A stretch of 64,000 nucleotides of DNA from Calditrichota bacterium (GCA_020051775.1 JAGVQJ010000153.1:4115-68114); one strand, 5' to 3'. Positions 591-35,824 are shown, counted from the stretch's first letter. A program made the numbers and translations. Notes: generated by a model from the letters alone, not told the origin.

Positions 591-1271
591 TCATACTCTC
601 GCTTTAATTAGAGCGCCGGGATCGAATTCGTCCGTCCTCTGCTGATTGGAAACCAGCCGCATCGCATCTATGCTTCCGGCGCGTTTCGGGTACGGCTTGC
701 GTAATGGTTCTATCTGTGCTCGCATAGCATCATCCAATGGATATAAATATCGGTGCTTCCAAGTTGCCTTCGTTTTAACCAACCCTGCGGTCGTTCCCAA
801 GATCGAACCGGCACTGCGTTGGTGCATGATCCGGCCATGATAAATTCGCTTACTCTGTGGATCGGTTCGTCCGGTGTAGATCCAATTACCCGCCTGATAG
901 ATTCCCCCGGCGTGTCCGTGCTCGGGATCCGCAAAAGAAACCACCAAACGTAATCCTGGATTCACCCGCTTGAGCAGCTTCAAGGCGATAACCATGCACT
1001 TACTCGCCGGAGTTTTGTGTTTCGTCATGGCCACCCGGACCAACTCGCAGCCCTGGGTCTGAATTAAACCGTAACGCTCCAGCAGTTTTGGGGAAGCGCC
1101 ACGTCCGAAGATAATCGCACCAATAAACCGATCATCTTCCCATACTCCAATTTTTACCAGCTTGCCACAGGGCATTGCCTTTGAATAGTGCCAGTGCATC
1201 ACGGCGTATCTTGCCGCCTCGAAAGAGCACCAATCGAGTTTGAGCTTCGGATGGTCTGCCACCCCTCGCAA
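591..1271 (-). CDS. Mom-like, GNAT-fold phage DNA-modification family protein (putative)
   Basis: 226 aa, close to the size of Mu Mom (231 aa). The motif pattern HWHYSKAMP...IGAIIFGRGASP...ELVRVA...SFADP.HGHAGGIYQAGNW matches phage acyltransferase-like proteins recalled from memory. The start is separated by one nucleotide from the stop of the downstream gene. Confidence 0.4.
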   Translation of the reverse strand: MRGVADHPKLKLDWCSFEAARYAVMHWHYSKAMPCGKLVKIGVWEDDRFIGAIIFGRGASPKLLERYGLIQTQGCELVRVAMTKHKTPASKCMVIALKLLKRVNPGLRLVVSFADPEHGHAGGIYQAGNWIYTGRTDPQSKRIYHGRIMHQRSAGSILGTTAGLVKTKATWKHRYLYPLDDAMRAQIEPLRKPYPKRAGSIDAMRLVSNQQRTDEFDPGALIKARV

Positions 1272-2731: not shown

Positions 2732-4780
2732 ATGCCTGTCGTGCGATGGATTGCGTATTACTTTTTCCCTGTCATCCTTTTCGTAAGTTACGGTATAACA
2801 GTCCACGCTCAGGTCTGGCAGCAATGGATGCGAGAATACAACGGCCAGGCCGATCAAATGGACGACGCAACGGCTGTTGTGGCCGGCAACGATGGCTGTA
2901 TTTATGTTACAGGCTGGTATTATGACGCACAAACGCTGCTGGATTGGGCGACCTTCAAGTACAATGCCACCGGCCAGGAACTCTGGATGGCCCGATATCA
3001 AGGTATTTCCTGGGATAAAGCTCTCGCCTTATCGGTTGATGGTTCCGGTTCAGTAGTGGTAACCGGTTATACCTGTCCTGTCTCCTTCAATTCCGATTTC
3101 ACTACGATTAAATACAATGCCAATGGAGTCCAGCAATGGGTGACAACCTACAATGGGACAGGCAATTCCATAGACGAAGCCATTGATAATACGATTGACG
3201 TTCAGGGAAACGTATATATAACCGGTCGCAGCACGGGTTTGGGAACTAACCAGGACGCCGTCACTATTAAATACGATGCCCTTGGCAATCAGCTTTGGAT
3301 TGCGGTTTACGATGGCCCTACTAGTGGTGAAGATGAGACTTATTCCGTCGCGGTGGACGAAAGCGGAAATGTTTATGTGGTTGGACGCAGCCAGGGAGTC
3401 GGGACTGATCTCGATTACCTCACTATCAAATACAACCATGAAGGTGTGGAACAATGGGTTCGGAGATACAATGGGCCGGCAAATGGTTACGACGTTGCTC
3501 GTGCGCTGGATTTAGATCCGAACGGGGAAGTTCTGGTTACCGGCTGGAGTGCCGGGGTTGGTAGCGGCGACGATTTCGCCACGCTGAAATACACGCCTGA
3601 TGGTCAGCTTGCCTGGGAGACTCGATACAACGGTCCGGGAGAAGGGGATGACCAAACTCGCGCTATTGTTGTAGATTCGCAGGGTAACAGTTATGTGACT
3701 GGATACTGTGATAGTGCACCCGGTCCAGATACTAATATGAACTTTGCTACGGCCAAATACAGTCCAACAGGCAATGAATTATGGGTGGCCTACTACAACG
3801 GACCCCACCATGGACCGGATCGCGGTCGCGCGTTGGCGCTGGATGAACAGGGAAACGTTTTTGTATCAGGATCCAGTACCGGCCTCAATTCTGGATTGGA
3901 TTTTACCACGTTAAAATATAGCCCCGACGGCGCTCAGCTATGGGAAATTCGACATAGTGACCCTGAGAATTTAAATGACGAGGTGGAAGCCATTGCATTG
4001 GATTTGAGCGGTCAAGTTTATGTCATCGGGACTACTGCGTATGGCACTGATCAGGCTGATTTCGCCACCTTGAAATATGCGCCCATCCCCCCCTCAGCAA
4101 CCGTCATTGGACTTTCACCCGCAAATCCTCCTATTATCATCCCCGCATCCGGTGGTAGTTTCGATTACACTTCCACCATCAGCAACAGTGCCTCGGCAAC
4201 TTCCAGCGTAACCGCCTGGATTATGGCGCGAACGCCTAACCAACTCTGGTATGGCCCGGTTGCCGGGCCGATTTCTCTGGTGCTACCCGGAGGAACCACG
4301 CTGACGCGAGTGCGCGCCCAAACAATCCCAGCCAACGCCTCGGCGGGAATCTACACTTACGAAGGTCGAATCGGAGGTTATCCCGACAGCTTGATCTCTT
4401 TTGATAGTTTCAATTTCACAAAAGTCGGGATCAATGAATCGAATTCGGGGATAGAGGAATGGCTGACCCCCAATGAACCGTTTCAGATTTCAGAGTCGAG
4501 TCTTTATTTAAAACCAACGGATCTCAACCTGTTGGGGGTAACACCTAATCCGTTTAATTCCTCTGCTACCATAAGCTATCAACTGGCAGCCGAGGGTCGG
4601 GTTAATCTGCAAATTTTCGATATTGGCGGACGGTCGGTGGAAATTGTGGTGAACGAATGGCAACCGGCAGGCAAGCATGTGGCCGTTTGGAATGGATCGA
4701 GCTTTCCATCCGGGATTTATTTATTCTCACTCACGGCCGCAGGGTCTCAAATCACCGGAAAAATGGCGCTGGTGAAGTAA
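2732..4780 (+). CDS. SBBP beta-propeller repeat protein with a T9SS C-terminal sorting domain
   Basis: It has a signal peptide. There are at least eight SBBP-type repeats of the form G..YVTG........D..TIKY...G...W...YNG. A pre-CTD module follows. A Por/T9SS CTD is present (PNPFNSSATISYQL...IFDIGGR...SGIYLFSL...TGKMALVK). Confidence 0.8.
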   Translation: MPVVRWIAYYFFPVILFVSYGITVHAQVWQQWMREYNGQADQMDDATAVVAGNDGCIYVTGWYYDAQTLLDWATFKYNATGQELWMARYQGISWDKALALSVDGSGSVVVTGYTCPVSFNSDFTTIKYNANGVQQWVTTYNGTGNSIDEAIDNTIDVQGNVYITGRSTGLGTNQDAVTIKYDALGNQLWIAVYDGPTSGEDETYSVAVDESGNVYVVGRSQGVGTDLDYLTIKYNHEGVEQWVRRYNGPANGYDVARALDLDPNGEVLVTGWSAGVGSGDDFATLKYTPDGQLAWETRYNGPGEGDDQTRAIVVDSQGNSYVTGYCDSAPGPDTNMNFATAKYSPTGNELWVAYYNGPHHGPDRGRALALDEQGNVFVSGSSTGLNSGLDFTTLKYSPDGAQLWEIRHSDPENLNDEVEAIALDLSGQVYVIGTTAYGTDQADFATLKYAPIPPSATVIGLSPANPPIIIPASGGSFDYTSTISNSASATSSVTAWIMARTPNQLWYGPVAGPISLVLPGGTTLTRVRAQTIPANASAGIYTYEGRIGGYPDSLISFDSFNFTKVGINESNSGIEEWLTPNEPFQISESSLYLKPTDLNLLGVTPNPFNSSATISYQLAAEGRVNLQIFDIGGRSVEIVVNEWQPAGKHVAVWNGSSFPSGIYLFSLTAAGSQITGKMALVK

Positions 4781-4883
4781 CCTCGTTTTCGGAAGGCGGA
4801 AAATGTTTTTCCTTGTTTTTACGAGAAAAAGTAGTTATATTAGTATAGATAAATGATACGCCCGATAGACCCAAGGAGGAATA

Positions 4884-7352
4884 ATGCGTTTGCGAGCTAC
4901 CCTGATCAGTTTTTCCCTGGTTTTGTTCGCTGTGAGCCTGGCTCAAGCGACTGGATATGTCTGGGCCGGACCAGGCGACATGCCCGATGAGCAGAAATTG
5001 TTGCTTTTTCAACAAAGTGAACATCGCGGCCAGTTCATCAACAATGCGCTGGATGAGACGGACGACAGCACCGGTTACGACGTCACTCACCAGAATCTCG
5101 AAATCAAGTTTGATCCTACCAATCATTCCATCGTCGGCAAGGTGGACATGCAGTTCACTGTCATCGCCGGACCCTTGTCTTTTATCTACCTGAACTTACG
5201 CAACAATTTGATCGTAGATAGCGTCAGGGTCAATGGACTACCGGTGACTTTCACATTCATGGCGTTAAATGACCTGAGATTGAATTTGACCCAGCCGCTG
5301 GCGCAAGGAGCCAACGCGACTTCGATTATTTACTACCACGGTTTCCCGGTCTCCGGATCCTGGCCAAATGCTCCTGGCCTGAACTGGAACACGCATTTGG
5401 GCACACATATCATCTGGTCGTTATCCGAACCGGATGGCGCGCGCATGTGGTGGCCCTGTAAAGATGTTCCCTGGGACAAGTTCACCGCTCGCATGGTGTG
5501 GACCGTCCCTAGTAATCTTCTCGCCACATCAAACGGCACTCTGCAGAGTGTAACCGTGCCGCAAACGGGCTGGAAGGCTTACGAATGGGTGGAAAATCAC
5601 CTGATTAATACCTACCTAATCTCGGTCGCCGCTACCAATTACGCCAAGATTCGCAATTGGTACGTCCCCACTCCCGCCGATTCCATGCCGCTGGATCATT
5701 ATGTGTATCCGGAAGACTCGGTTGACGCGGTATCTGACTTCGCGGATATTGGAGACGTGATTGGATTCTTCGCCTCGATGTTCGGAGAATACAGCTTCCT
5801 GGATGAAAAATACGGCCATTCGGCGTTCCCCTGGAGCGGCGGGATGGAACACCAGACCAATACCTCCGTGGGTGCAAGTCTGATCACCGGCACGGGAAGC
5901 TATCACTGGCTTTTCGTTCACGAGCTCGCCCATGAATGGTGGGGCGATATGCTCACCTGCGAGACTTGGTCTGATATCTGGTTAAACGAAGGTTCGGCTA
6001 CTTACTGCGATGCGTTGTGGATGCAACATGCCCAGGGACAAACTGCATTCAACAACCGGATGTCCAGTTTCCGGTCAAGCTACATCAGCAGTGAACCTTC
6101 GGAAGGCCGCTTCCCCATTGCCTATCCCACTAATCCCAATCAGATGTGGGGCGGCACGGTTTACCAGAAAGGGGCCTGGATCGAACACATGTTGCGTTAT
6201 GTCGTTGGCGAACCGAACTTCTTGAATTTCTGGCCGACCTATCGGGATGCCTACTGTCCCGGCAATGTGCCCGGTACCGCCACTACGGCTGAGTTTGAAA
6301 CTATATGGGAACAAGTCTCGGGACAGAACCTGGACTGGTTCTTCAACGAATGGGTTTATGTCGGCACGCATTATCCGGAATACCAGTGGGGATATCAGCT
6401 TGTCCCGCAGACCGGCAGCACTCGCGTGAACTTGTACATACACCAGAACCAGACTCTGGTTAGCGGAACACCCATCTTCGCGATGCCTATCCAGATCAAA
6501 GTGAACCGCACCGGACTACCGCAGGATTCCGTCGTCATCTGGAACAGCCAGCAAAATCAATATCATAGCTTCGTGGTAAACGGAACCGTAACCGGCGCTC
6601 CGTTGTTCGATCCCAATGTCTGGATTCTGAAGAGCACTTCAACTCTAACCTACCCAACGGCCACGGTGACTGTTCTCATGAGCCCGGTGTCTTCACCCAT
6701 CGTGATTCCGGCGAGCGGTGGCAGTTTCTCTTACAATGTCACCGTCACCAACAACACCTCCGGCACTCAATCCACCCAAGGGTGGGTCATGCAACGCCAG
6801 CCGAACGGCGTTTGGCAAGGACCCATGCTGGGACCGGTCAGCTTAGCCATTCCAGGCAACACCTCGATTTCACGGCTGCGCAACCAGAATGTACCCTCCA
6901 CAGCCGCGCCGGGAAATTACCTCTATGAAGGTCGGGTGGGCACATACCCCAATGTGATCGTCGCTACATCGAGTTTCAATTACACCAAAACTACGGTTGG
7001 CGGAGGTACGATCGTGCGCGAGTGGGCTAACAGCGGCGAAAGCTTCGATCCCTGGTTGGATCCTCAGAGTGTCATAGCACCGCTGGAATTTGCCTTACAA
7101 GGCGCCTTCCCCAATCCCTTCAACCCGACCACAACGATCCGCTTTGCGTTGCCGGAAGCGTCCCGAGTGGCGTTGACCGTCTACGACATCAACGGCCGCC
7201 AGGTTTGGGCGATGAACCCAACGTCTGCAAATCTGGGCTCGGGTTCGCATGAGATCACCTTCGACGGATCCAGTTTGGCGTCCGGGGTGTATCTGTACTC
7301 TTTATCCGCCGGTTCACATCACGCCACCGGCAAAATGGTACTGCTTAAGTAA
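4884..7352 (+). CDS. M1-family zinc aminopeptidase, T9SS-secreted
   Basis: A signal peptide is present. The gluzincin motif HELAHEWWG is followed 18 residues later by E in NEGSATY. A GAMEN-like GGMEH motif is present. The C-terminus carries the pre-CTD module and a T9SS CTD (NPFNPTTTIRFALP...VYDINGR...SGVYLYSL...TGKMVLLK). A strong GGAGG ribosome-binding site precedes it. Confidence 0.85.
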   Translation: MRLRATLISFSLVLFAVSLAQATGYVWAGPGDMPDEQKLLLFQQSEHRGQFINNALDETDDSTGYDVTHQNLEIKFDPTNHSIVGKVDMQFTVIAGPLSFIYLNLRNNLIVDSVRVNGLPVTFTFMALNDLRLNLTQPLAQGANATSIIYYHGFPVSGSWPNAPGLNWNTHLGTHIIWSLSEPDGARMWWPCKDVPWDKFTARMVWTVPSNLLATSNGTLQSVTVPQTGWKAYEWVENHLINTYLISVAATNYAKIRNWYVPTPADSMPLDHYVYPEDSVDAVSDFADIGDVIGFFASMFGEYSFLDEKYGHSAFPWSGGMEHQTNTSVGASLITGTGSYHWLFVHELAHEWWGDMLTCETWSDIWLNEGSATYCDALWMQHAQGQTAFNNRMSSFRSSYISSEPSEGRFPIAYPTNPNQMWGGTVYQKGAWIEHMLRYVVGEPNFLNFWPTYRDAYCPGNVPGTATTAEFETIWEQVSGQNLDWFFNEWVYVGTHYPEYQWGYQLVPQTGSTRVNLYIHQNQTLVSGTPIFAMPIQIKVNRTGLPQDSVVIWNSQQNQYHSFVVNGTVTGAPLFDPNVWILKSTSTLTYPTATVTVLMSPVSSPIVIPASGGSFSYNVTVTNNTSGTQSTQGWVMQRQPNGVWQGPMLGPVSLAIPGNTSISRLRNQNVPSTAAPGNYLYEGRVGTYPNVIVATSSFNYTKTTVGGGTIVREWANSGESFDPWLDPQSVIAPLEFALQGAFPNPFNPTTTIRFALPEASRVALTVYDINGRQVWAMNPTSANLGSGSHEITFDGSSLASGVYLYSLSAGSHHATGKMVLLK

Positions 7353-7448
7353 TCACCAACACAAAATAATCACAACCATACGACCGCAGGGACGGCGATG
7401 AAACCCGTCCCTGCGGATCACTTTCAATATGATTGCGGAGGATAGGTC

Positions 7449-10400
7449 ATGCATTCCGTCCGGTACGTCGCTTTAATCGCTCTTCTGGTACTTTTACAGT
7501 CGGTCCTGTTTGCGGCTGATTCGTATATTCAAACTCCAACCGGTGAGATCAAAGGCCGCCTGGTAGTGGAATTGGACGAAAGCTTGGGATCAATTCAGAC
7601 TGATACTCAGTCAGGGGTGGCACAAATCGGTTTTCCAGCACTCGATGCCTTGGCACGCCAATACCGTGTGTACTCCTTCAGTCGCGCTTTCCCAGGAGTC
7701 CCCAAACCGGAAGGGGGAGAATTCCTGGATATGACAAGGTACTATCTGCTGGAATTTCCTGTAGGAGTGAATCTGAATGCCATCGCTCACGATTATTCTG
7801 TGCAACCGGGAATTCTTTCGACTCATTTTGACCGGATGATTGCTCTGGACTATATCCCCAACGATCCTTCCTGGGGGTCGCAGTGGGCTTTGACTACGGT
7901 GCAAGCGCCAGTGGCATTTGATTATTGCCAGGGCAGCACGACTGTAAAAGTCGGCATCGTGGATTCCGGCATTGATACCACTCACAGCGACCTGAAAAAC
8001 AACCTTTGGGTCAATCCCGGAGAGGACTTAAACCACAACGGCATCATCGAATTGATCGAATGGAATGGTATGGATGATGACGGAAATGGCTATCCCGACG
8101 ATTTCTACGGCTGGAACTTCTACGGTAGTAACAATGACGTCCAGGATCTACCCACTTCACAGAATGGCGGGCATGGCACTCACTGTGCAGGTGACGCATC
8201 CGCTGTAACAAATAATGGCGTAGGCATCGCCAGTTTGGGCTATAAAGCCAAAATCATCACGGCGCGAGCTGGTTTGGGACTGACAGTCAGCGTCATCGCC
8301 GCCGCCAACGGCATGAATTACTGTACCATGCAGGGCGCCAAAGCGATCAACCTTTCCTTCGGCAGCAGCTCGACAGATCCTTTCTTGCCCGGCTCTATTT
8401 CCTACGCCTGGAGCCAGGGAGTAGCCGTTTTCGCTTCGGCAGGTAATTCCAACTCTTCTGCCGTGCACTACCCAGCGGCTTACGATTACACTGTGGCGGT
8501 AGCTTCTACGAATGCCAGCGATCAGAAATCCTGGTTCTCGAATTATGGCACCTGGGTGGATCTATGCGCCCCCGGTGATGGCATCCTTAGTACCGTGCCA
8601 CCCAACACCTACGTGGCCTGGGACGGAACTTCATTCTCCACGCCTATCACCGTCGGCTTGGCCGCTCTGGTCTGGGCCGCGAAACCGTCCTGGACCAATC
8701 AGCAGGTCATCACGCACATTCAGAACACCTGCACGAATATAAATGCCCAGAATCCGAGCTACATCGGCATGTTGGGAACGGGGCGCATCAACGCCGGTAA
8801 TGCCATCGGTTCGCTTTACCCCAATTTATCCTATGTCGAACAGCTATTCAACGATAGCTTGGGTGGCAACAACAATCATCGGCCCGATCCCGGTGAAAGC
8901 GTGCAGTTGTGGTTGACCCTTCGCAACACCTCCTCCACTATCCCCGCGACGGGCGTGCAGGTGTCGGTCACCTGTTCCGACACGACCATCACTTTGACGC
9001 AGACCAGCTCCGTTTTTGGCACGATCAATCCCGGTCAAATGGTCAACAATCACGCCAGCCCCATCGCTTTTACGGTGAGTCAGACGGCTCAAGCCCACAA
9101 CGCCACCTTTGTGCTCACTTTGACGGAAACCGGAATGGGGGTCACTCAGGTCACCAACCTGGTGCAACAAATCGGTCAACCGTTGCTGTTGCTGGTGGAC
9201 GATGCCGGAGCCAATTTATTCGGGCCTTACTATACCCAGACGCTGGATAGCCTGGGAATGGGTTACCAATACTGGAGCGTTAATTCGCAGGGCGTCCCGG
9301 ATACAGCTTACGCCAATGACTTCCCCATGATGATCTGGTTTACCGGCATGGTTTCCAGCAGTGTAATTTCGACAACGGAACAGACACTGATTCAGACGTA
9401 CTTGAACAACGGCGGTAAGCTGTTCATCAATGGACAGAACATCGCCCAATCCCTGAATACCGCTTCGCCGACTTTTTTGCACAACACGTTGCATGCTAAT
9501 TTCGGCACAGCCAACACCATGGTTCAGGTATTGAACGGTGTCGCCGGCAATCCCATCGGCAACGGCCTCAATCTGGACTGTTCCCTGGGGGGCAGCGGAT
9601 CGGGATCGAACATCAATCCGGATGGCATCAGCGTGATCGCACCCGCCGGTGAAGCATTCATCTATCAAAGTTCGGCTTATCGCGGAGGCTTAACGTATAC
9701 GGGCACAAGCAACGAAATGCTGGTCTTTTTCTCCTTCGCCTACGAAGCCATCAGCGGCCAAAACAGCACGGCCGATCGCTACCAGGTGATGTCAACCATT
9801 CTGTCATGGTTTGGAGCCGCGCCGCCTCCGCCGCCACCCGCTCTGGACGTGACACTCACACCAGTCAATCCGCCCATTACCATCCCAGCTAATGGCGGCA
9901 GCTTTCAATTCAACGCTGCGGTGCTGCGGACTACAGGCCCGCAAGCCCCCTTCTATGGTTGGGCGCGCATGAAGTATCCCAACGGCACCTACAGCAATCC
10001 CACTCTGGGGCCGGTGCAGATCAATCCGCCAGTGGGCGTGACCATTACTCGTTTGCGCATTCAAAACATCGCCTCCACCCATCCATCTGGGATAACGACC
10101 TACCTCGGTTATGCCAACACTACCTTCACCTACCCGGCTATGGACAGCAGCTTTTTCACCTTTACCAAGCTGGCAATCGCAGACAACGGCCCCTGGGTGA
10201 ATAACAGCACTTGCTCCGGCGAACCGTTCCCGGGCGAAATCATGACTTCAACGCCGGAGGCGTTTTCCTTAGTAAGCATCAATCCAAATCCGTTCAATCC
10301 GGCCACGAGCATCAGATATCAGCTTTCGCCTTCAAGCCGCGTCAGCTTGAAAGTGTATGATATGGCAGGACGATTGGTTGCAGAGCTGGTAAATGGGACG

Positions 10401-10520
10401 CAGGAAGCCGGAACCCATCAAGTGATGTTCGATGGATCAAGATTGGCTTCAGGTCTGTACTTTGTCCGACTGCAATCAGGCGATTTCAACGCCACTCAGA
10501 AGATGATGCTGTTGAAATAA
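7449..10520 (+). CDS. Subtilisin-like S8 serine peptidase with propeptide, middle domain and T9SS CTD (paralog 1)
   Basis: The catalytic triad is visible: Asp in VGIVDSGID, His in HGTHCAG and Ser in GTSFSTP. An N-terminal propeptide-like region and signal peptide are present. A PPPPPP linker leads into the pre-CTD module and the T9SS CTD. Confidence 0.9.
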   Translation: MHSVRYVALIALLVLLQSVLFAADSYIQTPTGEIKGRLVVELDESLGSIQTDTQSGVAQIGFPALDALARQYRVYSFSRAFPGVPKPEGGEFLDMTRYYLLEFPVGVNLNAIAHDYSVQPGILSTHFDRMIALDYIPNDPSWGSQWALTTVQAPVAFDYCQGSTTVKVGIVDSGIDTTHSDLKNNLWVNPGEDLNHNGIIELIEWNGMDDDGNGYPDDFYGWNFYGSNNDVQDLPTSQNGGHGTHCAGDASAVTNNGVGIASLGYKAKIITARAGLGLTVSVIAAANGMNYCTMQGAKAINLSFGSSSTDPFLPGSISYAWSQGVAVFASAGNSNSSAVHYPAAYDYTVAVASTNASDQKSWFSNYGTWVDLCAPGDGILSTVPPNTYVAWDGTSFSTPITVGLAALVWAAKPSWTNQQVITHIQNTCTNINAQNPSYIGMLGTGRINAGNAIGSLYPNLSYVEQLFNDSLGGNNNHRPDPGESVQLWLTLRNTSSTIPATGVQVSVTCSDTTITLTQTSSVFGTINPGQMVNNHASPIAFTVSQTAQAHNATFVLTLTETGMGVTQVTNLVQQIGQPLLLLVDDAGANLFGPYYTQTLDSLGMGYQYWSVNSQGVPDTAYANDFPMMIWFTGMVSSSVISTTEQTLIQTYLNNGGKLFINGQNIAQSLNTASPTFLHNTLHANFGTANTMVQVLNGVAGNPIGNGLNLDCSLGGSGSGSNINPDGISVIAPAGEAFIYQSSAYRGGLTYTGTSNEMLVFFSFAYEAISGQNSTADRYQVMSTILSWFGAAPPPPPPALDVTLTPVNPPITIPANGGSFQFNAAVLRTTGPQAPFYGWARMKYPNGTYSNPTLGPVQINPPVGVTITRLRIQNIASTHPSGITTYLGYANTTFTYPAMDSSFFTFTKLAIADNGPWVNNSTCSGEPFPGEIMTSTPEAFSLVSINPNPFNPATSIRYQLSPSSRVSLKVYDMAGRLVAELVNGTQEAGTHQVMFDGSRLASGLYFVRLQSGDFNATQKMMLLK

Positions 10521-10614
10521 TCAATCTACCATCAACCGATAACTTAAGAAACAAAAGGGGCGGGCCAAGTCCGCCCCTGCCAATACTAAAGTCATATATA
10601 GCGGAGGATCGCAC

Positions 10615-13600
10615 ATGCGTTATTATCAGTATCTCACCTTAATGCTGGCGGTGTTAAGCTTGACTTGGGGTTTCGCTCAGGCGGAAAATCCCTATCTGCT
10701 GACGCCTGCGAATGAGGTCAAAGGCCGTCTGGTCGTCGAGATAGATCCCACCCTCGGCCCTATTCAAGTCAAAAATCAGGACGGTATCGTTCAAATTGGA
10801 AATCCCGCCTTGGATGCGCTGGCACGCCAATATCACGTCTATTCCCTCGCTCGGGCGTTTCCCGGAGCGCGTATTCCAATCAACCCGGAAATCCAGGACA
10901 TGACCCATTATTACTTGCTGGAATTTCCGGTGGAGATGGATCTTCACGCCGCCCTGGCCGATTTCCGGAGCGCTAGTTCGATTTTGGATGCACAGGTGGA
11001 TCGTGCGATCAAATTGGATTATACACCCAACGACACCTACTTCCCAAATCAATGGGGTTTGTCAACAGTGCAGGCGCCAGTAGCATTCGATTATTACATG
11101 GGCAGCCCTACGGTAAAAGTGTGCATCGTGGATTCCGGCATTGACACGGCTCACGTGGATCTGCGTAATAACCTCTGGATCAATCCCGGAGAGGATTTGA
11201 ACCACAACGGCATCATCGAGATGATCGAGTGGAACGGCATAGATAACGACGCCAACGGTTATACTGACGATTTCTACGGCTGGAATTTCTACAACAACAA
11301 CAACAACGTCCAGGATCTGCCGGTCAGTCAGGGCGGCGGTCACGGAACGCACTGCGCCGGGGATGCCTCTGCTGTGACGGATAATGGGCTGGGAGTAGCC
11401 AGTCTGGGCTGCAAGGCTAAAATTATCACTTCGCGCGCCGGCTTAGGCGGGACGGTTTTGTTAACCGCCGCTGCCAACGGTATCTATTACGCCGCGAACA
11501 TGGGCGCCGACGTAATCAACCTCTCCTTCGGCAGTGACTTTACCGAGCCTTTCTTGCCCCCAGCGATCAACAATGCTTGGAGCCAGGGCGCCATCATCTG
11601 CGGAGCGGCGGGCAACAACGGCGTTTCTACACCGCATTACCCGGGGGCATACGCCAACACAGTCGCCGTGGCGGCAACCGCTCCAGGCGACAACCTCGCC
11701 ACCTTCTCAAACTACGGAACCTGGGTGGATCTGTGCGCTCCGGGTCAGTCCATCATCAACACCGTGCCCGGAAATTCCTACGAATCCTGGGATGGCACTT
11801 CATTTTCCAGCCCCCTTACGGTAGGCTTATGCGCTCTGGTTTGGGGATGCAAACCGACCTGGACCAACCAGCAGGTTATCACTCATGTTCAAACAACCTG
11901 CACCAACATCAATTCCCAAAATCCTCAGTATATTGGCTTAATGGGCTCCGGCCGTATCAACGCCGGCCAGGCGATTTCCGTCCTGTTCCCGCACCTTTCC
12001 TATACTGAACAGGTTTTCAACGACACTTTGGGCGGCAACGGCGATCTTCGTCCCGACCCGGGCGAAACGGTGCGTTTGTGGTTGACCATGTCCAACACTT
12101 CCACCACAGTCGCCGCCACCGGCGTAACCGTTACAGCCACCTGCTCAGATCCGAGCATCACCATTACGCAAGCCAGTTCGACGCTGGGTAATATCCCCAT
12201 CGGCAGTTCAGCCAATAACCACCTCAGTCCAATCATGTTCACGGTGAGTTCTACGTCCACACCTCACGAAGCTACCTTCACTCTTTCGATGCACGAAACC
12301 GGGATGAACTTCACCCAGGTTGCCACCATCACGCAGATGATCGGCCGCCCGCCCATCGTGATCGTAGATGACGACGGCGGCTCGAATTTCCAGATCTGGT
12401 ATGATATGGATCTTGATTCGCTGAATCAGATCCACGACATTTGGAATGTGACTACCGCAGGCTCGATCCCCACGACAACCTTACAACTGTATTCGCTAGC
12501 CATCTGGCACACCTCCAATGCTGCCAATCCACTGACTGCCGGTGAACAGACCACCATCACGAGCTACTTGAGCAACGGCGGCCACCTCTTCTTGGTGGGT
12601 GAGAACATTGACGAACAGATGGCGGGTCAGCCTTTCTATGCCAATACCTTACATGCCACTTCACTTGCGACCGCGGGATCTTTCCAACTAACGGGAGTCG
12701 CCGGCGATACCATCTCAAACGGGACGTCTCTGTTCCTGGCCGGAGGCACCGGCGCCGGTAACAGCCTTTCACCTAATTGCATCAGCCCAACTGGTGGCGC
12801 AGTGGCGGTATATACGTACAACGTCAACAGCTTGGGTGGCGGTCTTCGCTGGAATTCGGGTGTCAATAAACTCGTGTACTTTGCCTTCAATTTCGAGGCA
12901 ACCTCGGGTCTTGCTGGGACCACTTTGCGGCGCACTGTCCTCAACAATATCATTACCTGGTTGGGCGTTTCGTCGCCACCCCCGCCGCCCCCTGCTTTAG
13001 ATGTGACTCTGACGCCGGTGAATCCACCCATTACTATTCCGGCGAATGGCGGCAGCTTCCAGTTCAACGCTGCGGTGCAACGCACTACCGGCCCGCAAGC
13101 CGTCTTCTGGGCTTGGGCGCGGATGAAATACCCCAACGGAACCTACAGCGGCCCCACCTTAGGGCCTGTGCAGATCAATCCGCCGGTAGGTGTGACCATC
13201 ACCCGCTTGCGCAATCAGAACATCGCCTCCACTCATCCTGCTGGAGTGACGACTTACCTGGGTTATGCCAATACGACTTTCACCTACCCGGCCATTGATA
13301 GCAGCTCCTTTACCTTCACCAAGCTGGTGATTTCTAACAACGGCCCCTGGGTGAATGACTACAGCTGCTCTGGCGAACCATTCCCGGGTGAAGTGATGCC
13401 GATCGCACCTGTGTCCTTTGCGCTGATCGAAGCTAATCCCAATCCTTTTAACCCTGTCACAACACTCAGCTTCACTCTGCCGGAAGCTTCGCTTGTCGTC
13501 CTGAACGTATACGACATTCAAGGGCGACTGGTCATCACTCTGGTAAATGGTCTGCGCGAAGCCGGTCAGCACCAGGTAACCTTTGACGGATCAACCCTGG

Positions 13601-13674
13601 CCTCAGGTGTGTATCTATACGCTCTGGAAGCTGGAACAAATTCAGCCACGGGTAAGATGGTGCTGATGAAATAG
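10615..13674 (+). CDS. Subtilisin-like S8 serine peptidase (paralog 2, tandem duplicate)
   Basis: It has the same architecture as 7449-10520 and is roughly 60-80% identical across domains. The motifs are VCIVDSGID, HGTHCAG and GTSFSSP. The CTD reads NPFNPVTTLSFTLP...TGKMVLMK. Confidence 0.9.
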   Translation: MRYYQYLTLMLAVLSLTWGFAQAENPYLLTPANEVKGRLVVEIDPTLGPIQVKNQDGIVQIGNPALDALARQYHVYSLARAFPGARIPINPEIQDMTHYYLLEFPVEMDLHAALADFRSASSILDAQVDRAIKLDYTPNDTYFPNQWGLSTVQAPVAFDYYMGSPTVKVCIVDSGIDTAHVDLRNNLWINPGEDLNHNGIIEMIEWNGIDNDANGYTDDFYGWNFYNNNNNVQDLPVSQGGGHGTHCAGDASAVTDNGLGVASLGCKAKIITSRAGLGGTVLLTAAANGIYYAANMGADVINLSFGSDFTEPFLPPAINNAWSQGAIICGAAGNNGVSTPHYPGAYANTVAVAATAPGDNLATFSNYGTWVDLCAPGQSIINTVPGNSYESWDGTSFSSPLTVGLCALVWGCKPTWTNQQVITHVQTTCTNINSQNPQYIGLMGSGRINAGQAISVLFPHLSYTEQVFNDTLGGNGDLRPDPGETVRLWLTMSNTSTTVAATGVTVTATCSDPSITITQASSTLGNIPIGSSANNHLSPIMFTVSSTSTPHEATFTLSMHETGMNFTQVATITQMIGRPPIVIVDDDGGSNFQIWYDMDLDSLNQIHDIWNVTTAGSIPTTTLQLYSLAIWHTSNAANPLTAGEQTTITSYLSNGGHLFLVGENIDEQMAGQPFYANTLHATSLATAGSFQLTGVAGDTISNGTSLFLAGGTGAGNSLSPNCISPTGGAVAVYTYNVNSLGGGLRWNSGVNKLVYFAFNFEATSGLAGTTLRRTVLNNIITWLGVSSPPPPPPALDVTLTPVNPPITIPANGGSFQFNAAVQRTTGPQAVFWAWARMKYPNGTYSGPTLGPVQINPPVGVTITRLRNQNIASTHPAGVTTYLGYANTTFTYPAIDSSSFTFTKLVISNNGPWVNDYSCSGEPFPGEVMPIAPVSFALIEANPNPFNPVTTLSFTLPEASLVVLNVYDIQGRLVITLVNGLREAGQHQVTFDGSTLASGVYLYALEAGTNSATGKMVLMK

Positions 13675-26917: not shown

Positions 26918-27093
26918 TAATCAGTGATCTCTATCAACCAAACTGGCTTACTTCTCGCATATTTTATGATAATCGGGGCTCAAACCGCAGAAGAATGCAA
27001 ATAAATGCACAAGGATGAAAAAATATCGCCGTTGTTCCCAGGTCATATCTCAAAATGAACTGGATTGATATTTTCCATAACCAAGAGGTCAAA

Positions 27094-29802
27094 ATGTCCG
27101 ACAGAAGATTAGTCTTGTGGCTTGGCTGCGTGCTGAGCTTGTTTCTCGTGGCGAGTCTGGCTTTTAGCGCGCCGCAATGGGTTTCCCTGAACGGTCAAAC
27201 CGGCGCTGCACCGATGGTACAAGTTGTAGATCACAGCAACGCCGGGACTACTTTACGGGTGACGATTCCCGGTTTCTGGAGCGAAGAAAAAATCCAATCC
27301 GGAGAAATTTTCCAGGTCTTAAGCTTCGGGGACAACGCGACCACAATGGAGGTGGGTGCCCCCATGCTGCCTAAGATCGTGGAGCTTGTAGCCATCCCAG
27401 CGCGCAGCGACCTGCGCGTGTCGGTCCGGGATCTGGACATGCTGACTCTGCATAATTACCGACTCTACCCCTTCCAAACGCCCACGACGGACGACCAGGC
27501 CGAAGCCTCCTTTGTCATGGATCAAGCCGCTTACTCCGTCAACGCGTACTATCCGCAAGCTGTGGCTAACGTCTCGGATCCACAAATCTGGCGCGATGTG
27601 CGCCTGACAGGATTGGAACTCACGCCGGTGCGCTACAATCCCGTCAGTCGGGAGCTGGTTGTCGCCCGCTCATTCGAGGTGCGCATCGAGTATTCCGGCG
27701 TCAACATGCACCATGCATTGGATCACGATCCCGTTTCTGTCAATCCAATCTACGACAACATGTACCGGTCGGCCATTATCAATTACGATAACTTACACTT
27801 GGACGTGGATCGCACGGACAGTCCCGGAACCAAGTACCTCGTCGTGGTTCGGCAGGAGGCGCTTACTCACGTGCAGCCTTTGATTGATCTGCGCAATGCG
27901 CAAGGCTACAAAACGGAAGTCAAGATCTACCCGACGACTGGCTTTGACACCGATTATGCCATTAAAAGTTACATCACCTCTCTGTTTGTCTCCTCGGCGC
28001 TGGAATATGTGCTTCTCGTCGGCGACGCCTACCACGCCGGGGGCTCCAGCCAGATTGACGTGCCCATGCACATGTGGGTGGATTCATACTCAGATTCCTG
28101 GTACACTTCGCTGCAGGGCGACGGCGACTATTTCGCCGATCTGGCTATCGGACGCCTCGTTTACGACAATATGACCGAGCTGGATCGCCAGGTAAGCAAA
28201 ACCATGGCCTATATGCAGACGCCCGACTTGACTGCCAATTGGGCTGGTAACTCCCTGCTGGTGGCGCATCAGGAACAGTATCCGCAGAAATATACACTAT
28301 GCAAAGAACAAATTCGCACGTTCAACTACGCGATCCAAAATCCGACTTTCGCCACCGCTTATGGCGGCGCCGGAGCTACCAACCAGCAGGTGATTGACTA
28401 CATTAACAACCAGGGCACCGGCCTGCTGAATTACCGCGGGCATGGTTCGGCTACGGAATGGTGGCAGTGGGGCCCTTCAGGCAGCTTCACGGCTACGCAT
28501 ATCGCTCAGTTGACGAACCTCAATCGTTACTTCGTGCACTTCGACGTCTGCTGCGATAATATGAATATCCCTAACTACAACGGTAATTGCCTGGCCGAAT
28601 CCTTCATGAAAGCCACCGCTGCGGCCATAGCCATCAACGGAGCCATCATTCCGTCCTACACCATCCCCAACCATGATTACGACAAGGAATTCTACAAAGC
28701 GCTTTATAATAACGGCATCTGGCATATCGGCTATGCGTCCAACTACGCCAATGTGGCGGTCGTGACGCTTCACGGCAGCATTGGTCAGTCCAACTATCGC
28801 ACCTACTTATGGTTGGGTGATGCGGCCATAGACCTGTTGACCGCAACGCCGCAGCAGTTGACCATGCAGTATGAGCCGACCATCAACCTGGGTAGCCAGG
28901 ATTTCCAAGTTACGGTACTGAAGTCTGGTCAGCCGGTCGCCAATGCCCTGGTTTGCGCTCAGGGCGCCGGCGCCTATGCTCGTGGGTTCACTAACGCCTC
29001 GGGTGTGGCTTACCTGGTGTTCAGTGAAATGCCCGCGTCGCAAGTACAGGTGAACGTGCGCGCTTCGGCTCACAATGGTTTGGACGCCACCGGTACAGCC
29101 ACGATCATACCAAGCGGTTCTCCGTATGCCGTCGCAGTAAACCTGACGGCGACTACAGCTCTGGTCATTCCTCCCGGCGGCGGCAGTTTCAGCTACACGG
29201 TGAATGTGACGAACAGCGAAAACTACAGCCTTCCGGTACATGCCTGGACCGATTGGGTCTATCCCAACAGCACCATTCACACGCCGTTTATTGATCGTTT
29301 CCTCACCCTCGTTCCCGGAGCTCCACTCAACCGCTCCCTTACGCAGAGTGTAGGCGGATCCGAACCCCCCGGAACTTATCTCTATCGCGGGTGTGTAGGG
29401 ACCTATCCCGGCGGCACGATTTACGCTGCGGATACGCTGGTGTTCACGAAATCTGCGGTGGATGAATGGCTGGGCGAAATACCCTCCCTGGTTTTGGGCT
29501 CTGAAGTCACCGGCTGGGATGAACCGGCTACAATAGCGCCACAGCATTACGCGCTGTCCCAAGCTCCCAACCCCTTCAATCCCGTAACTACGATAAGCTT
29601 CTCGCTACCAATCAGCGCCCGAGTGCGCCTGACCATCTTCGACACCCTGGGGCGCGAAGTCGCCGTGCTGGTGGATGGTTACCGTGTCGCGGGAAATCAC
29701 CAGGCAACGTTCGATGGCTCCGAGCTGGCTTCAGGCATTTACTTAAGCGACCTGCAAGTCGGTGACGTGCATTTATCGGGCAAGATGGTGTTAATGAAGT
29801 AA
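27094..29802 (+). CDS. Peptidase C25 (gingipain-like) family protein with T9SS CTD
   Basis: A signal peptide is present (start taken at MSDRRLVLWLGCVL, with an AGAGG ribosome-binding site). The His motif NYRGHGSATEW and the Cys motif FDVCCDN resemble the gingipain catalytic dyad. It carries the pre-CTD module and the CTD NPFNPVTTISFSLP...IFDTLGREV...SGIYLSDL...GKMVLMK. Confidence 0.75.
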   Translation: MSDRRLVLWLGCVLSLFLVASLAFSAPQWVSLNGQTGAAPMVQVVDHSNAGTTLRVTIPGFWSEEKIQSGEIFQVLSFGDNATTMEVGAPMLPKIVELVAIPARSDLRVSVRDLDMLTLHNYRLYPFQTPTTDDQAEASFVMDQAAYSVNAYYPQAVANVSDPQIWRDVRLTGLELTPVRYNPVSRELVVARSFEVRIEYSGVNMHHALDHDPVSVNPIYDNMYRSAIINYDNLHLDVDRTDSPGTKYLVVVRQEALTHVQPLIDLRNAQGYKTEVKIYPTTGFDTDYAIKSYITSLFVSSALEYVLLVGDAYHAGGSSQIDVPMHMWVDSYSDSWYTSLQGDGDYFADLAIGRLVYDNMTELDRQVSKTMAYMQTPDLTANWAGNSLLVAHQEQYPQKYTLCKEQIRTFNYAIQNPTFATAYGGAGATNQQVIDYINNQGTGLLNYRGHGSATEWWQWGPSGSFTATHIAQLTNLNRYFVHFDVCCDNMNIPNYNGNCLAESFMKATAAAIAINGAIIPSYTIPNHDYDKEFYKALYNNGIWHIGYASNYANVAVVTLHGSIGQSNYRTYLWLGDAAIDLLTATPQQLTMQYEPTINLGSQDFQVTVLKSGQPVANALVCAQGAGAYARGFTNASGVAYLVFSEMPASQVQVNVRASAHNGLDATGTATIIPSGSPYAVAVNLTATTALVIPPGGGSFSYTVNVTNSENYSLPVHAWTDWVYPNSTIHTPFIDRFLTLVPGAPLNRSLTQSVGGSEPPGTYLYRGCVGTYPGGTIYAADTLVFTKSAVDEWLGEIPSLVLGSEVTGWDEPATIAPQHYALSQAPNPFNPVTTISFSLPISARVRLTIFDTLGREVAVLVDGYRVAGNHQATFDGSELASGIYLSDLQVGDVHLSGKMVLMK

Positions 29803-29878: not shown

Positions 29879-32020
29879 TTATTTCACCAGAACCATTTTC
29901 ATCGTTTTCGTGAAATCTGTGGTCTGGAGGTGATAAATGTACATGCCGGTTGCCAATCCTGAGGCATCGAAAGTAACCTGATGCACACCCGCTTCGAACT
30001 CCCCATTGACCAAAGTTTCCACGAGTCGGCCCTGCAAATCGAAGACCGCCAGGTTGACGTGATCGCTGTGGGGCAACCCAAGGCTGATCGTCGTGGTGGG
30101 GTTGAACGGGTTGGGACAATTCTGCGAGAGGCTGTAATCAACAGGGATCTGCAACATGCCGCCCTGACCGCAAATGCCCGGCCGTTCCGTGGGCATAGTG
30201 GTTTCCTCGTTACCGCCGCCCGAGACGGTTTTATAGAAGGTGAAGAACCCATCTTCGTAACCCGGCAGAGTGGGATATACTTCACCTACTGTACTGTGCA
30301 TATCCAGCGCACCGACCAACAAGGGAGAGGCGGGGATGGGAGCGGAGATAGTGGCGTTGTAAATCTCATTTGGCTCAAAGGTGTAATTGTCCTCGATTAA
30401 CGCCTGGAGCATTACTACACCATCCTGCATTACGTACCACCAAATATCCGCGGTGTAAGGGATACTCAGGAGATTCGTAACGGTAAGGTCCCATACCAGG
30501 TTTCCTCCCTCCGGCGGGATATAGAGCCCTGATCCCGTTGGTGGTACGATTGACAAATTGAAGTCAGCGGGGACAGAGATATCCGCACGCATATTCCAAT
30601 CGTAAGCATTGGGATCGGGATCCCAGCCGGTGCTGGATTTTATCCAGGCTTGATTGGATTTCAGAGGATCATCGAATCTTAGCAAGGAAGTTGTGGTGCC
30701 CAGGAAGTAATAAGCAACATAGAAAGGACCGTCAGTTTGGACCGCTACCGGATATTCATTCCACCCGGTGGCGGGGTTGGCATCCGAGGCCGTCCACAAC
30801 ACTGCTCCAGGTACACCCCCTACTTCTTCAATTACTTTTATCTGGGCGCCGGAGGCGAAGGGTGATTGCCAAATCTGTAGGTTTTCAATCGAGACGTGGT
30901 CAATCCAGAAAGCGCTGGTGCCAAGACCGGGGTCAAAGCGCATAGCGAAAGCGCCATCGGGAAGCACGGTGAAGCTGGCGCCATAGTACGTTCCATAATC
31001 AACGTACCCCAACCAGGCGGGTGGAGAATAAACCTGGAATTCAATGCTCTTGGAGTCATTATCCTCATTCTCGTCTCTGGTGTACTCCACAGAAATCACA
31101 TAGTAGTAACGATCATCATCGTCAACGTTCCAGGTGAAATCATGGATTTCAAATCCCCCGGGCGGTATTGGGTTGGTAATTGTATGAGTTTGTTGCGCTT
31201 CCAGAGTGCTACTTTCCCCTTGTTCTGAGTACAACATGCAGGTGACGGTAGCTGTTTCGCCCGTTAGCGGCGAGGGGATATCCCCAGTGTTTGTTAGAAT
31301 TGCCTGACATACCGATACCGCCGGATTCTGGTTCAGGATGAAATAGCCGTTGTGCGTGATGGCAGTGACGGCCAGGTCCCATAGCCCGGTATATTCCCCA
31401 CCGGCACGGATGAAATTATCGCCCGGAGAAGGATCGGGAATGGGCTGAGACAGGTTGAAGTAGGTTTTGGAGTAGTTATCAACCGGCAAGGAAGGGGCGA
31501 CGTCGTAAATTTCCCACGGAGCATTCGGGGGACCCTCCGAGGTAATTCTAAGCCAAAACCATTCGTTGGCATCGAAAACAGTCCAGGGGTCGGGGGAGTT
31601 GGGGAAGCTGATTTCATCCCAGAATTCAAGTCCGGGATCGTAGATCGCGGTGATTTCCCAAATAACCGTACCAGGATTGTGAACGATTCCGTTGTAGAAA
31701 TCTTCGAGCAGAGTGATGGTAATGGGACCCGTACCATTCAAATGCAGCAACATTCCCTGAAGCTCGAATTCAGCGATCGGCATAAACCGGGTGGCTAAAG
31801 CGAAATTGTGCAACCCGTTAAAATGCTGGTAGGGAATGCCGTCATCCCAGAACAGAACGTCGGTAAACACATCGAGCGTGCTGGGATTTCCGTTCGGAGT
31901 CAACATGTGCGGGTAGAGGGTCGGCTCGAGATTGTTAGGCCCGTACCCGGCTACGGCAGTGACGTTGCCCAGCAACGCCAGAACCACCATGATGAACATG
32001 ATTTTAATTACTCGTTCCAT
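29879..32020 (-). CDS. Large secreted protein with an unknown N-terminal region, pre-CTD module and T9SS CTD
   Basis: Start taken at MERVIKIMFIMVVLALLG, preceded by a GGAGGAG ribosome-binding site. The CTD reads NPFNPTTTISLGLP...VFDLQGRLV...GMYIYHL...KMVLVK. The ORF track extends further upstream without a ribosome-binding site. Confidence 0.7.
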   Translation of the reverse strand: MERVIKIMFIMVVLALLGNVTAVAGYGPNNLEPTLYPHMLTPNGNPSTLDVFTDVLFWDDGIPYQHFNGLHNFALATRFMPIAEFELQGMLLHLNGTGPITITLLEDFYNGIVHNPGTVIWEITAIYDPGLEFWDEISFPNSPDPWTVFDANEWFWLRITSEGPPNAPWEIYDVAPSLPVDNYSKTYFNLSQPIPDPSPGDNFIRAGGEYTGLWDLAVTAITHNGYFILNQNPAVSVCQAILTNTGDIPSPLTGETATVTCMLYSEQGESSTLEAQQTHTITNPIPPGGFEIHDFTWNVDDDDRYYYVISVEYTRDENEDNDSKSIEFQVYSPPAWLGYVDYGTYYGASFTVLPDGAFAMRFDPGLGTSAFWIDHVSIENLQIWQSPFASGAQIKVIEEVGGVPGAVLWTASDANPATGWNEYPVAVQTDGPFYVAYYFLGTTTSLLRFDDPLKSNQAWIKSSTGWDPDPNAYDWNMRADISVPADFNLSIVPPTGSGLYIPPEGGNLVWDLTVTNLLSIPYTADIWWYVMQDGVVMLQALIEDNYTFEPNEIYNATISAPIPASPLLVGALDMHSTVGEVYPTLPGYEDGFFTFYKTVSGGGNEETTMPTERPGICGQGGMLQIPVDYSLSQNCPNPFNPTTTISLGLPHSDHVNLAVFDLQGRLVETLVNGEFEAGVHQVTFDASGLATGMYIYHLQTTDFTKTMKMVLVK

Positions 32021-32150
32021 TGTACTCCTCCTGAATTTGGGTTGAGTGATGGTACTTTTAGTACTAATGGTGCTGGTACAGATACAGAATGGCAAAAATG
32101 TTAGTTTTTTCTTGCTTAATCCGCTATTTTATGCTTAATTATGAACAAAG

Positions 32151-35651: not shown

Positions 35652-35824
35652 ATCTCACTGGATCATCTTTCCTATTCTCCAGGGGCGTCCTCGCCCACCG
35701 CTAAAGCGATGGGCTACATATATACCAAGCCCCCTGAAGGGGGCTGAAAAACTACCAAAGACGCGGCCAGCCACGAGAAACCGTCACGGTATGGACCGTG
35801 ACGGACCAGATAGCGAAGCGACCC

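Follow-up and report, generated by a model that had tools for sequence, protein, structure and literature searches.

We analysed a 64,000-nucleotide stretch of a Calditrichota bacterium genome (GCA_020051775.1, JAGVQJ010000153.1:4115-68114; hereafter the window), in which six genes for type IX secretion system (T9SS) cargo share an unnamed domain of about 105 residues, here called the module. Four of these genes are consecutive on the plus strand at 2.7–13.7 kb, encoding an SBBP β-propeller protein, an M1 peptidase and two S8 peptidase paralogs (S8a and S8b). The C25 peptidase gene and a minus-strand gene lie at 27–32 kb (Table 1). All six proteins end in a type-A T9SS C-terminal domain (CTD) that scores above curated cut-offs (PF18962, 27.9–41.3 bits against a cut-off of 27; TIGR04183, 25.1–43.1 bits against 23). 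Read by eye from the translations, their N-termini resemble signal peptides, with one or more basic residues, a hydrophobic stretch and an A-x-A-like site, as in MRLRATLISFSLVLFAVSLAQA. A first-pass annotation of this DNA had described six unrelated architectures. The domain content is as it described, but the S8 pair is paralogous, leaving five independent architectures.

Table 1. Features of the window, in positions counted from its first nucleotide (ORF, open reading frame; E, expectation value; GC, guanine plus cytosine)
Feature	Position	Strand	Details
SBBP/delta-60 β-propeller cargo	ORF 2732-4780	+	Pfam/NCBIfam
Module copy 1, subtype A	4112..4426	+	aa 461-565 of SBBP cargo; independent-profile E 4.6e-40
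38-aa linker (EEWLTPNEPF motif) and type-A CTD, SBBP cargo	4427..4777	+	PF18962 aa 605-678; TIGR04183 aa 603-678
M1 metallopeptidase cargo	ORF 4884-7352	+	Pfam/NCBIfam
Module copy 2, subtype A	6678..6992	+	aa 599-703 of M1 cargo; independent-profile E 1.1e-41
38-aa linker (REWANSGESF motif) and type-A CTD, M1 cargo	6993..7349	+	PF18962 aa 742-819
S8 peptidase (subtilase) paralog a, S8a	ORF 7449-10520	+	Pfam/NCBIfam
Proline run and ALDVTLTP, S8a	9819-9854	+	directly upstream of module copy 3
Module copy 3, subtype B	9855..10172	+	aa 803-908 of S8a; poly-proline run before; independent-profile E 1.5e-37
36-aa linker (CSGEPFPGE motif) and type-A CTD, S8a	10173..10517	+	Pfam/NCBIfam
S8 peptidase (subtilase) paralog b, S8b	ORF 10615-13674	+	Pfam/NCBIfam
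Proline run and ALDVTLTP, S8b	12973-13008	+	directly upstream of module copy 4
Module copy 4, subtype B	13009..13326	+	aa 799-904 of S8b; independent-profile E 5.8e-40
36-aa linker (CSGEPFPGE motif) and type-A CTD, S8b	13327..13671	+	Pfam/NCBIfam
C25 gingipain-like peptidase with propeptide	ORF 27055-29802	+	Pfam/NCBIfam
Module copy 5, divergent	29143..29454	+	aa 697-800 of C25 cargo; independent-profile E 3.7e-23; leave-one-out E 1.7e-15
36-aa linker and type-A CTD, C25 cargo	29455..29799	+	Pfam/NCBIfam
Cargo without recognisable N-terminal family	ORF 29879-32095	-	Pfam/NCBIfam
Module copy 6, most divergent	30227..30556	-	aa 514-623 of ORF 29879-32095; independent-profile E 7.9e-6
36-aa linker (no clear GE.F motif) and type-A CTD, minus-strand cargo	29882..30226	-	PF18962 aa 661-735
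Intergenic spacers of about 100 nt	4781-4883; 7353-7448; 10521-10614	+	each with its own GC-rich hairpin
CTD cargo without module	20851-21831	+	PF18962 36 bits; short linker before CTD
CTD cargo without module	35798-37543	+	more divergent CTD, without Pfam call
CTD-like stretch, no module	33572-33916	-	E 2.5e-6 to window CTD profile
445-aa ORF with InhA-like MAM domain	33820-35157	-
Fluoride riboswitch RF01734	54182-54243	+	65 bits, E 8.6e-16
Na+/H+ exchanger-family gene	54267-55418	+	PF00999
Mom-family ORF	591-1271	-	PF25680, E 7e-43
tRNA gene	2408-2493	-

The six module copies belong to one family. An independent profile hidden Markov model (HMM), built from 145 module copies of proteins outside the window, finds all six over their full length, while the next window ORF scores 0.17; profile searches of the window ORFs gave no further copies. 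The translations match the consensus that the first-pass annotation had drawn up for the module, and its coordinates hold for the five plus-strand copies; the minus-strand copy, placed roughly at 30230-30560, is now refined (Table 1). In leave-one-out HMM searches five copies are recovered at E ≤ 1.7e-15, and copy 6 only at E = 0.14. Copy 6 has the IPPEGG start and FFTFYK end as the other copies do, and the 145-sequence profile aligns it at positions 3–104, essentially without gaps. The 17-residue insertion and 17-residue deletion assigned to it by MAFFT are an alignment artefact. Between unrelated window cargo, module identity is 23–50%, against 42–62% for the CTD.

The module carries no name in current domain catalogues. 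HMM searches of the six window proteins placed no Pfam-A or NCBIfam model on module residues at E ≤ 0.1, including the CARDB, FN3, PKD and NEW3 Ig-like families. Models of CTDs and T9SS cargo (PF18962, TIGR04183, CHU_C and the NF038113/NF052323 tails) align only to the last ~75–105 residues, the CTD models covering the last ~75, so the module is not the N-terminal extension of a longer CTD model. Nor is it a duplicated or degenerate CTD, for which hhalign gives a probability of 1.2%.

Structure prediction supports the Ig-like fold raised in the first-pass annotation. AlphaFold2, given the M1 copy with a six-sequence alignment, returned a β-sandwich of six long β-strands with a mean predicted local distance difference test score (pLDDT) of 94.9. 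In a Foldseek search of the PDB, ranks 1–8 were all chains of Vibrio cholerae RbmA (PDB 4kkp/4be5; E 2e-6 to 2e-5, query TM-score (TMq) 0.77–0.78). The module and RbmA superpose with a root-mean-square deviation of ~3 Å over 98 columns at ~18% identity. Generic E-set Ig folds follow (NPC2, RhoGDI, pilus chaperones, glycosidase accessory domains). Profile searches of PDB sequences with hmmsearch matched RbmA only, in both of its fibronectin type III (FnIII)-like domains (E 3e-5 with six copies, 9.4e-8 with 33 copies). RbmA is therefore the best match by fold and by profile, and the two share the pattern GG...W...P.G...R...P.G.Y. The Pfam model for these domains, PF22021 (RbmA-like_FnIII), matched 14 of 33 module copies below threshold (best E 2.2e-4), and the M1 copy reached 12.6 bits (E 0.12) against a gathering threshold of 27 bits. 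The only other Pfam matches among 33 family members were NPCBM_assoc in three (best E 6e-6) and DUF11 in one (E 0.1), which is consistent with distant E-set relatedness only. Among the RbmA-like FnIII/E-set β-sandwiches the module represents a divergent branch not yet catalogued. It differs from RbmA in setting: RbmA is a free-standing, two-domain matrix protein of a gammaproteobacterium and lacks a CTD, whereas the module is a single domain within T9SS cargo. The type-A CTD (TIGR04183/PF18962) likewise has an Ig-like β-sandwich-type fold and shares with the module a P/A-x-G-x-Y-x-Y hairpin motif; the module differs from it as a separate domain lying 36–40 aa upstream that can occur internally without a CTD.

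A near-invariant polar ladder marks the module family. It comprises R66-x-R68-x-Q70 plus K104. The ladder residues alternate with hydrophobic residues on one strand and should therefore face solvent, and an HMM alignment pairs the second arginine with an arginine of RbmA.

The module is widespread and coupled to the CTD on very diverse cargo. An exhaustive HMMER scan of 1.84 billion representatives of clusters at 50% identity found 2,981 proteins at E ≤ 1e-3 (1,586 at ≤ 1e-10 and 30 at ≤ 1e-30), a family of ~3,000 clusters. A word-indexed protein search, by comparison, gave 3 (six-copy query) and 5 (33-copy query) fragmentary matches; such a search is near-blind to this family and no measure of its rarity. 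The architecture figures that follow cover the best 150 of the 2,981 matches. A CTD is carried by 145 of them. Of the remaining five, four are truncated proteins that break off within the linker or CTD, and one, P0008 (2,890 aa), has only partial repeats and a different C-terminal anchor. The last module ends a median of 117 aa from the C-terminus (interquartile range (IQR) 116–119). One copy per protein is the rule (139 proteins), with two copies in eight, three in two and six partial matches in P0008. A Pfam scan of 79 representatives detected PF18962 in 73 and, across the N-terminal parts of the 79, 44 different families, among them SBBP, β-helix, LVIVD, C25, Kelch, Omp28, S8, PQQ, FG-GAP and NosD. 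Databases call module proteins 'hypothetical protein' or name them after their N-terminal repeats only, and literature searches on the T9SS with Zixibacteria, or for a named pre-CTD domain, returned nothing describing this module.

Genomic loci give the same picture. DNA searches with the subtype-A module-internal peptide SWYGPVLG(P), which is unbiased toward CTDs but samples loci narrowly, yielded 11 genome loci in GTDB and 15 metagenome loci. The former include Candidatus Zixiibacteriota SURF_9 (four), candidate division LCP-89 B3_LCP (one) and two unclassified metagenome-assembled genomes. A CTD follows the module in 12 of 12 ORFs at the genome loci and in 23 of 23 at the metagenome loci, two of these across a frameshift. 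The co-occurrence with TIGR04183-type CTDs that the first-pass annotation had proposed checking thus extends well beyond the window, and the alternative it had raised, a generic Ig-like domain without CTD linkage in other genomes, does not describe the module: the coupling is far tighter than for generic Ig-like domains. Zixibacteria and LCP-89 both fall in the Fibrobacteres–Chlorobi–Bacteroidetes (FCB) group, and the T9SS is described as restricted to that group (PMC12398890, PMC9170169).

Module-bearing cargo genes commonly stand in tandem arrays: four lie side by side in the window, and runs of two or three occur at L004, L015, L016, L023, L025 and L027. Some proteins (P0004, P0005, P0007, P0029 and P0035) carry two or three modules split by other domains and a single terminal CTD, the modules of P0035 lying more than 330 aa from it. 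These multi-module proteins look like fusions of neighbouring cargo genes whose internal CTDs were lost. One orphan ORF, P0155 (L012 5911-6336, and L013; JGI 3300021511 / 3300021508), is a bare module, lacking signal peptide, tail motif and CTD alike. Its surroundings are not those of cargo genes, and we take it for a probable gene remnant.

A linker of near-constant length separates module from CTD. The first-pass annotation had placed the module immediately upstream of the CTD; instead, all six window proteins have 36–38 residues between the module's closing F-x-F-T-K and the P-N-P-F-N-P that starts the CTD. In 129 representatives this tether has a median length of 39 residues (IQR 38–40, 5th–95th percentile 36–44). 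Its length is held more closely than its sequence: across 139 representative tails, mean pairwise identity is 48% for the module and 50% for the CTD but 26% for the linker. The linker does contain one conserved motif, about 12 residues past the module end, in the form W-x-N-x-G-E-x-F (subtype A, 98 of 139 tails) or C-x-G-E-x-F-P-G-E (subtype B, 31 of 139), with its glycine conserved in more than 90%. In the window, the SBBP and M1 proteins are of subtype A and the S8 copies of subtype B; the modules of the C25 and minus-strand proteins are divergent, with the motif weak or absent.

This tail motif belongs to the module rather than to the CTD. It also follows internal module copies that have no CTD (P0004, P0005, P0006, P0007, P0029 and P0126), and linker similarity tracks module similarity (Mantel rho 0.28, permutation maximum 0.11). 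The first of these observations also weakens the idea that the motif is part of the CTD or a mere cleavage-site mark. CTD and module similarities are themselves barely correlated (Mantel rho 0.12, permutation maximum 0.15). AlphaFold2 modelled module, linker and CTD of the M1 protein together as two well-formed β-sandwiches joined by a linker of pLDDT 40–50, with a predicted TM-score (pTM) of 0.52. This model indicates a disordered, flexible tether, with no fixed orientation predicted between module and CTD.

Selection on the module is strong. Within the S8 pair the module is 90.6% identical in amino acids, as the first-pass annotation had estimated (~90%), and 82% in nucleotides, with ~43.5 synonymous and 13.5 non-synonymous differences and a ratio of non-synonymous to synonymous rates (dN/dS) of 0.06. 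Residues 1–85, put earlier at ~60% identity, are 54% identical, with synonymous sites saturated (proportion of synonymous differences (pS) 0.78). The S8 catalytic domain (70% identity, dN/dS 0.12), residues 601–790 (37%, 0.14) and the CTD (57.5%, 0.23) are all less constrained, and among domain-sized regions the module has the lowest ratio, undercut only by the adjoining 12-codon proline run (0.02). The module is the most constrained domain-sized part of the S8 proteins, and recent gene conversion is excluded; purifying selection, the explanation offered in the first-pass annotation, accords with this ratio and with conservation of the subtype in P0012 (83–86% identity). P0012 is a 741-aa metagenome protein on another contig that has no S8 domain and resembles the C-terminal half of S8a (residues ~600–1023). 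Modules of the S8a, S8b and P0012 pairs are 91%, 86% and 83% identical while the flanks range over 36–76% (38–76% for the S8 proteins against P0012), which points to strong conservation of the subtype across contigs and not only between S8 neighbours. The flanks of S8a are closer to P0012 (64–76%) than to S8b (36–57%). Outside the module this mosaic may reflect shuffling of domains between cargo genes. Directly before the module, both S8 paralogs have seven or eight consecutive prolines and then ALDVTLTP (92% identity between them), a stretch that P0012 also has.

The other window copies are not each other's nearest relatives. Except for the S8 pair, each is closer to copies in other metagenome proteins, and we therefore reject a general, genome-wide homogenisation of modules by concerted evolution.

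Not every CTD protein in the window carries the module. At least two, probably three, CTD ORFs lack it (Table 1). The third case is a CTD-like stretch that follows, in a different frame, the ORF with an InhA-like MAM domain; together they probably represent either one T9SS cargo gene with a frameshift or an error of assembly. The C25 cargo peptidase matches the PorU sortase model NF033707 weakly, at 62 bits against a cut-off of 420, which makes it gingipain-like and not a PorU orthologue. The spacers between the four tandem cargo genes each contain a GC-rich hairpin of their own, for example GCAGGGACGG...CCGTCCCTGC, which suggests separate terminators and independent transcription of the four genes. 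The cargo-gene intergenic regions share no promoter-like motif, these gene-specific hairpins being all that was found there. Elsewhere in the window, the fluoride riboswitch lies directly upstream of a gene of the Na+/H+ exchanger family, not of crcB or eriC-F, and an ORF of the Mom family (a phage Mu-type DNA-modification family) stands beside a tRNA gene in an otherwise chromosomal-looking context.

Almost all that is understood of how T9SS cargo is recognised, stripped of its CTD and attached to the surface comes from Porphyromonas and Flavobacterium, in which the pre-CTD domain is heterogeneous and its role debated. The closest parallel in architecture comes from P. gingivalis, where RgpB, Kgp and PPAD have an immunoglobulin superfamily (IgSF) domain, an unstructured linker and a CTD, with no fixed orientation between the two domains (de Diego et al. 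2016, PMC4804311). That work suggested that the IgSF domain of RgpB acts as spacer or insulator, and that CTD processing by the T9SS is dictated by motifs of the two Ig-like domains (PMC4804311). Our module resembles that tandem in lying, as an Ig-like β-sandwich, between a functional domain and a type-A CTD, and in its unstructured linker without fixed domain orientation. A pre-CTD domain serving as spacer and contributing to CTD processing, as proposed for the gingipain and PPAD tandem, would be a further likeness. The gingipain and PPAD IgSF domain stays on the mature protein, and by analogy the module may do so too. Beyond the generic fold, the two are equivalent only in their position in the architecture, with no sequence relationship detected: the gingipain IgSF model PF03785 (Peptidase_C25_C) matches no window protein, the C25 cargo included, and no gingipain or PPAD chain is among the top 50 fold matches. 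The linkers differ as well, at about 38 near-constant residues with a conserved motif here and 9 residues in RgpB. Unlike the gingipain IgSF domain, the module is one sequence family on dozens of unrelated cargo types, and its hosts are uncultured FCB phyla outside the Bacteroidota.

We think it probable that module, tail motif, near-constant tether (36–40 aa) and type-A CTD form a portable cassette, the module of which then serves as a pedestal on the mature cargo. The descriptive part of this reading is near-certain, namely the domain and its fold class, the architecture, the CTD linkage, the constraint on linker length and the diversity of cargo. Many unrelated cargo proteins, among them peptidases, β-propellers and β-helices, have acquired the cassette in uncultured FCB bacteria such as Zixibacteria and LCP-89. 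The mechanistic part, drawn by analogy and covering removal of the CTD, the site of cleavage, the module's role as pedestal and contact with T9SS components, has about an even chance of being right. In this mechanism, cargo would cross the inner membrane via Sec and be steered through the T9SS by its CTD. A PorU-type sortase would then cut within the tether and remove the CTD, so that the mature protein would end in the module, now its membrane-proximal domain. In that position the folded module would serve as a pedestal or spacer, keeping the functional domain off the anchor point. Its conserved surface and the fixed tether length would probably let the module present the cleavage and attachment site in a defined geometry.

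Three features suggest more than passive spacing, namely the fixed tether, the tail motif, and the polar ladder with K104. The additional role would most plausibly be to present the cleavage and attachment site or to contact a conserved partner. PorU prefers a small residue at P1 and a polar or acidic one at P1' (PMC5445135), and we infer that the Gly-Glu of the tail motif could fit this loose preference. An obligatory recognition role is unlikely, judging from the window sequence, and the module is not an obligatory secretion signal, because cargo with the same type of CTD lacks it in the same window. The shuttle or adaptor recognition element offered in the first-pass annotation is at most a hypothetical role.

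A number of observations qualify the cassette-and-pedestal reading or the first-pass interpretation. The CTD cargo without a module shows that its contribution is not required by every cargo. In about 7% of representatives there are internal modules distant from any CTD, and more distant family members, beyond the best 150 of the 2,981, may lack a CTD as P0008 does. A Pfam scan of 20 further window ORFs found no T9SS components, which leaves a T9SS and a PorU in this organism presumptive. The pS of the module in the S8 pair, 0.54 (synonymous divergence (dS) ~1.0), is below the 0.62–0.80 seen elsewhere in the pair, so an older homogenisation may have made a minor contribution, for S8a and S8b only. 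Finally, neither this degree of conservation nor a need for a fixed tether would be expected of a passive spacer, and 'pedestal' alone may undersell the role.

Three other explanations deserve weighing. The one that survives best, although we consider it unlikely, is that the module is a surface-retention or matrix domain. It would hold the mature cargo non-covalently after CTD removal by RbmA-like binding to a surface or matrix glycan or to itself, and the CTD linkage would follow simply from the use of the T9SS by all such cargo. RbmA is the closest relative by profile and by fold, and its FnIII-2 domain binds Vibrio polysaccharide (VPS) directly while the protein forms higher-order assemblies (PMC5605196). 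The presumably solvent-facing ladder and K104, with an arginine in common with RbmA, would suit a binding surface, and the constraint on the module (dN/dS 0.06) is stronger than a spacer needs. Identity to RbmA is, however, ~18% and short of the Pfam threshold, and retention leaves the near-constant tether to the CTD unexplained. It is also compatible with the pedestal model rather than exclusive of it.

Rather less probable still is a passive spacer spread by cassette shuffling. On this account an Ig-like linker domain came by chance to lie beside an ancestral CTD and spread with it by duplication and recombination among tandem cargo genes, so that its conservation reflects folding constraint and recent common ancestry, not any secretion-specific role. 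The tandem arrays in the window and at other loci are what such a history would leave, as are the multi-module proteins that resemble fusions of neighbouring cargo genes and the lowered pS of the S8-pair module; the IgSF domain of RgpB has itself been read as a spacer or insulator (PMC4804311). But module and CTD similarities that barely correlate argue against one recently co-inherited block, and window modules that are not one another's nearest relatives argue against genome-wide homogenisation. A mean identity of ~48% over very different cargo, together with the fixed linker and the tail motif, points to selection beyond foldability.

Least likely, and in our view very doubtful, is an extended sorting signal. 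The T9SS (translocon, PorV shuttle or sortase) would then recognise the module and its GE.F tail as a two-domain signal peculiar to the lineage, and the conserved Gly-Glu would be the P1-P1' site of the sortase. The module's almost obligate place before the CTD, the fixed length of the tether, the >90% conserved glycine, the fit of Gly-Glu to PorU preference (PMC5445135) and the suggestion that motifs of both adjacent Ig-like domains dictate CTD processing (de Diego et al., PMC4804311) all speak for it. Against it, same-type CTD cargo lacks the module in the window and related loci, the motif also follows CTD-less internal copies and is weak or missing in the C25 and minus-strand proteins, and the CTD alone suffices as a secretion signal in characterised systems (PMC5445135).

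There is also a bolder reading, to which we give little credence. Module, GE.F tail and fixed tether would together be a second, lineage-specific determinant of T9SS sorting or anchoring in Zixibacteria- and LCP-89-like phyla, acting through a co-evolved sortase or shuttle, or through a non-covalent glycan anchor that replaces attachment to anionic lipopolysaccharide (A-LPS). If true, 'module + CTD' would be a distinct class of T9SS cargo signal and not a mere spacer.

The module matters for how T9SS cargo is understood outside the model organisms. A single unnamed domain family placed before the CTD across dozens of cargo types is a natural experiment on what a pre-CTD domain contributes. It is also a marker for annotating T9SS cargo in uncultured FCB phyla and a candidate for a new Pfam/InterPro entry. 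If the module turned out to dock or anchor cargo, the T9SS sorting signal would have to be defined more broadly.

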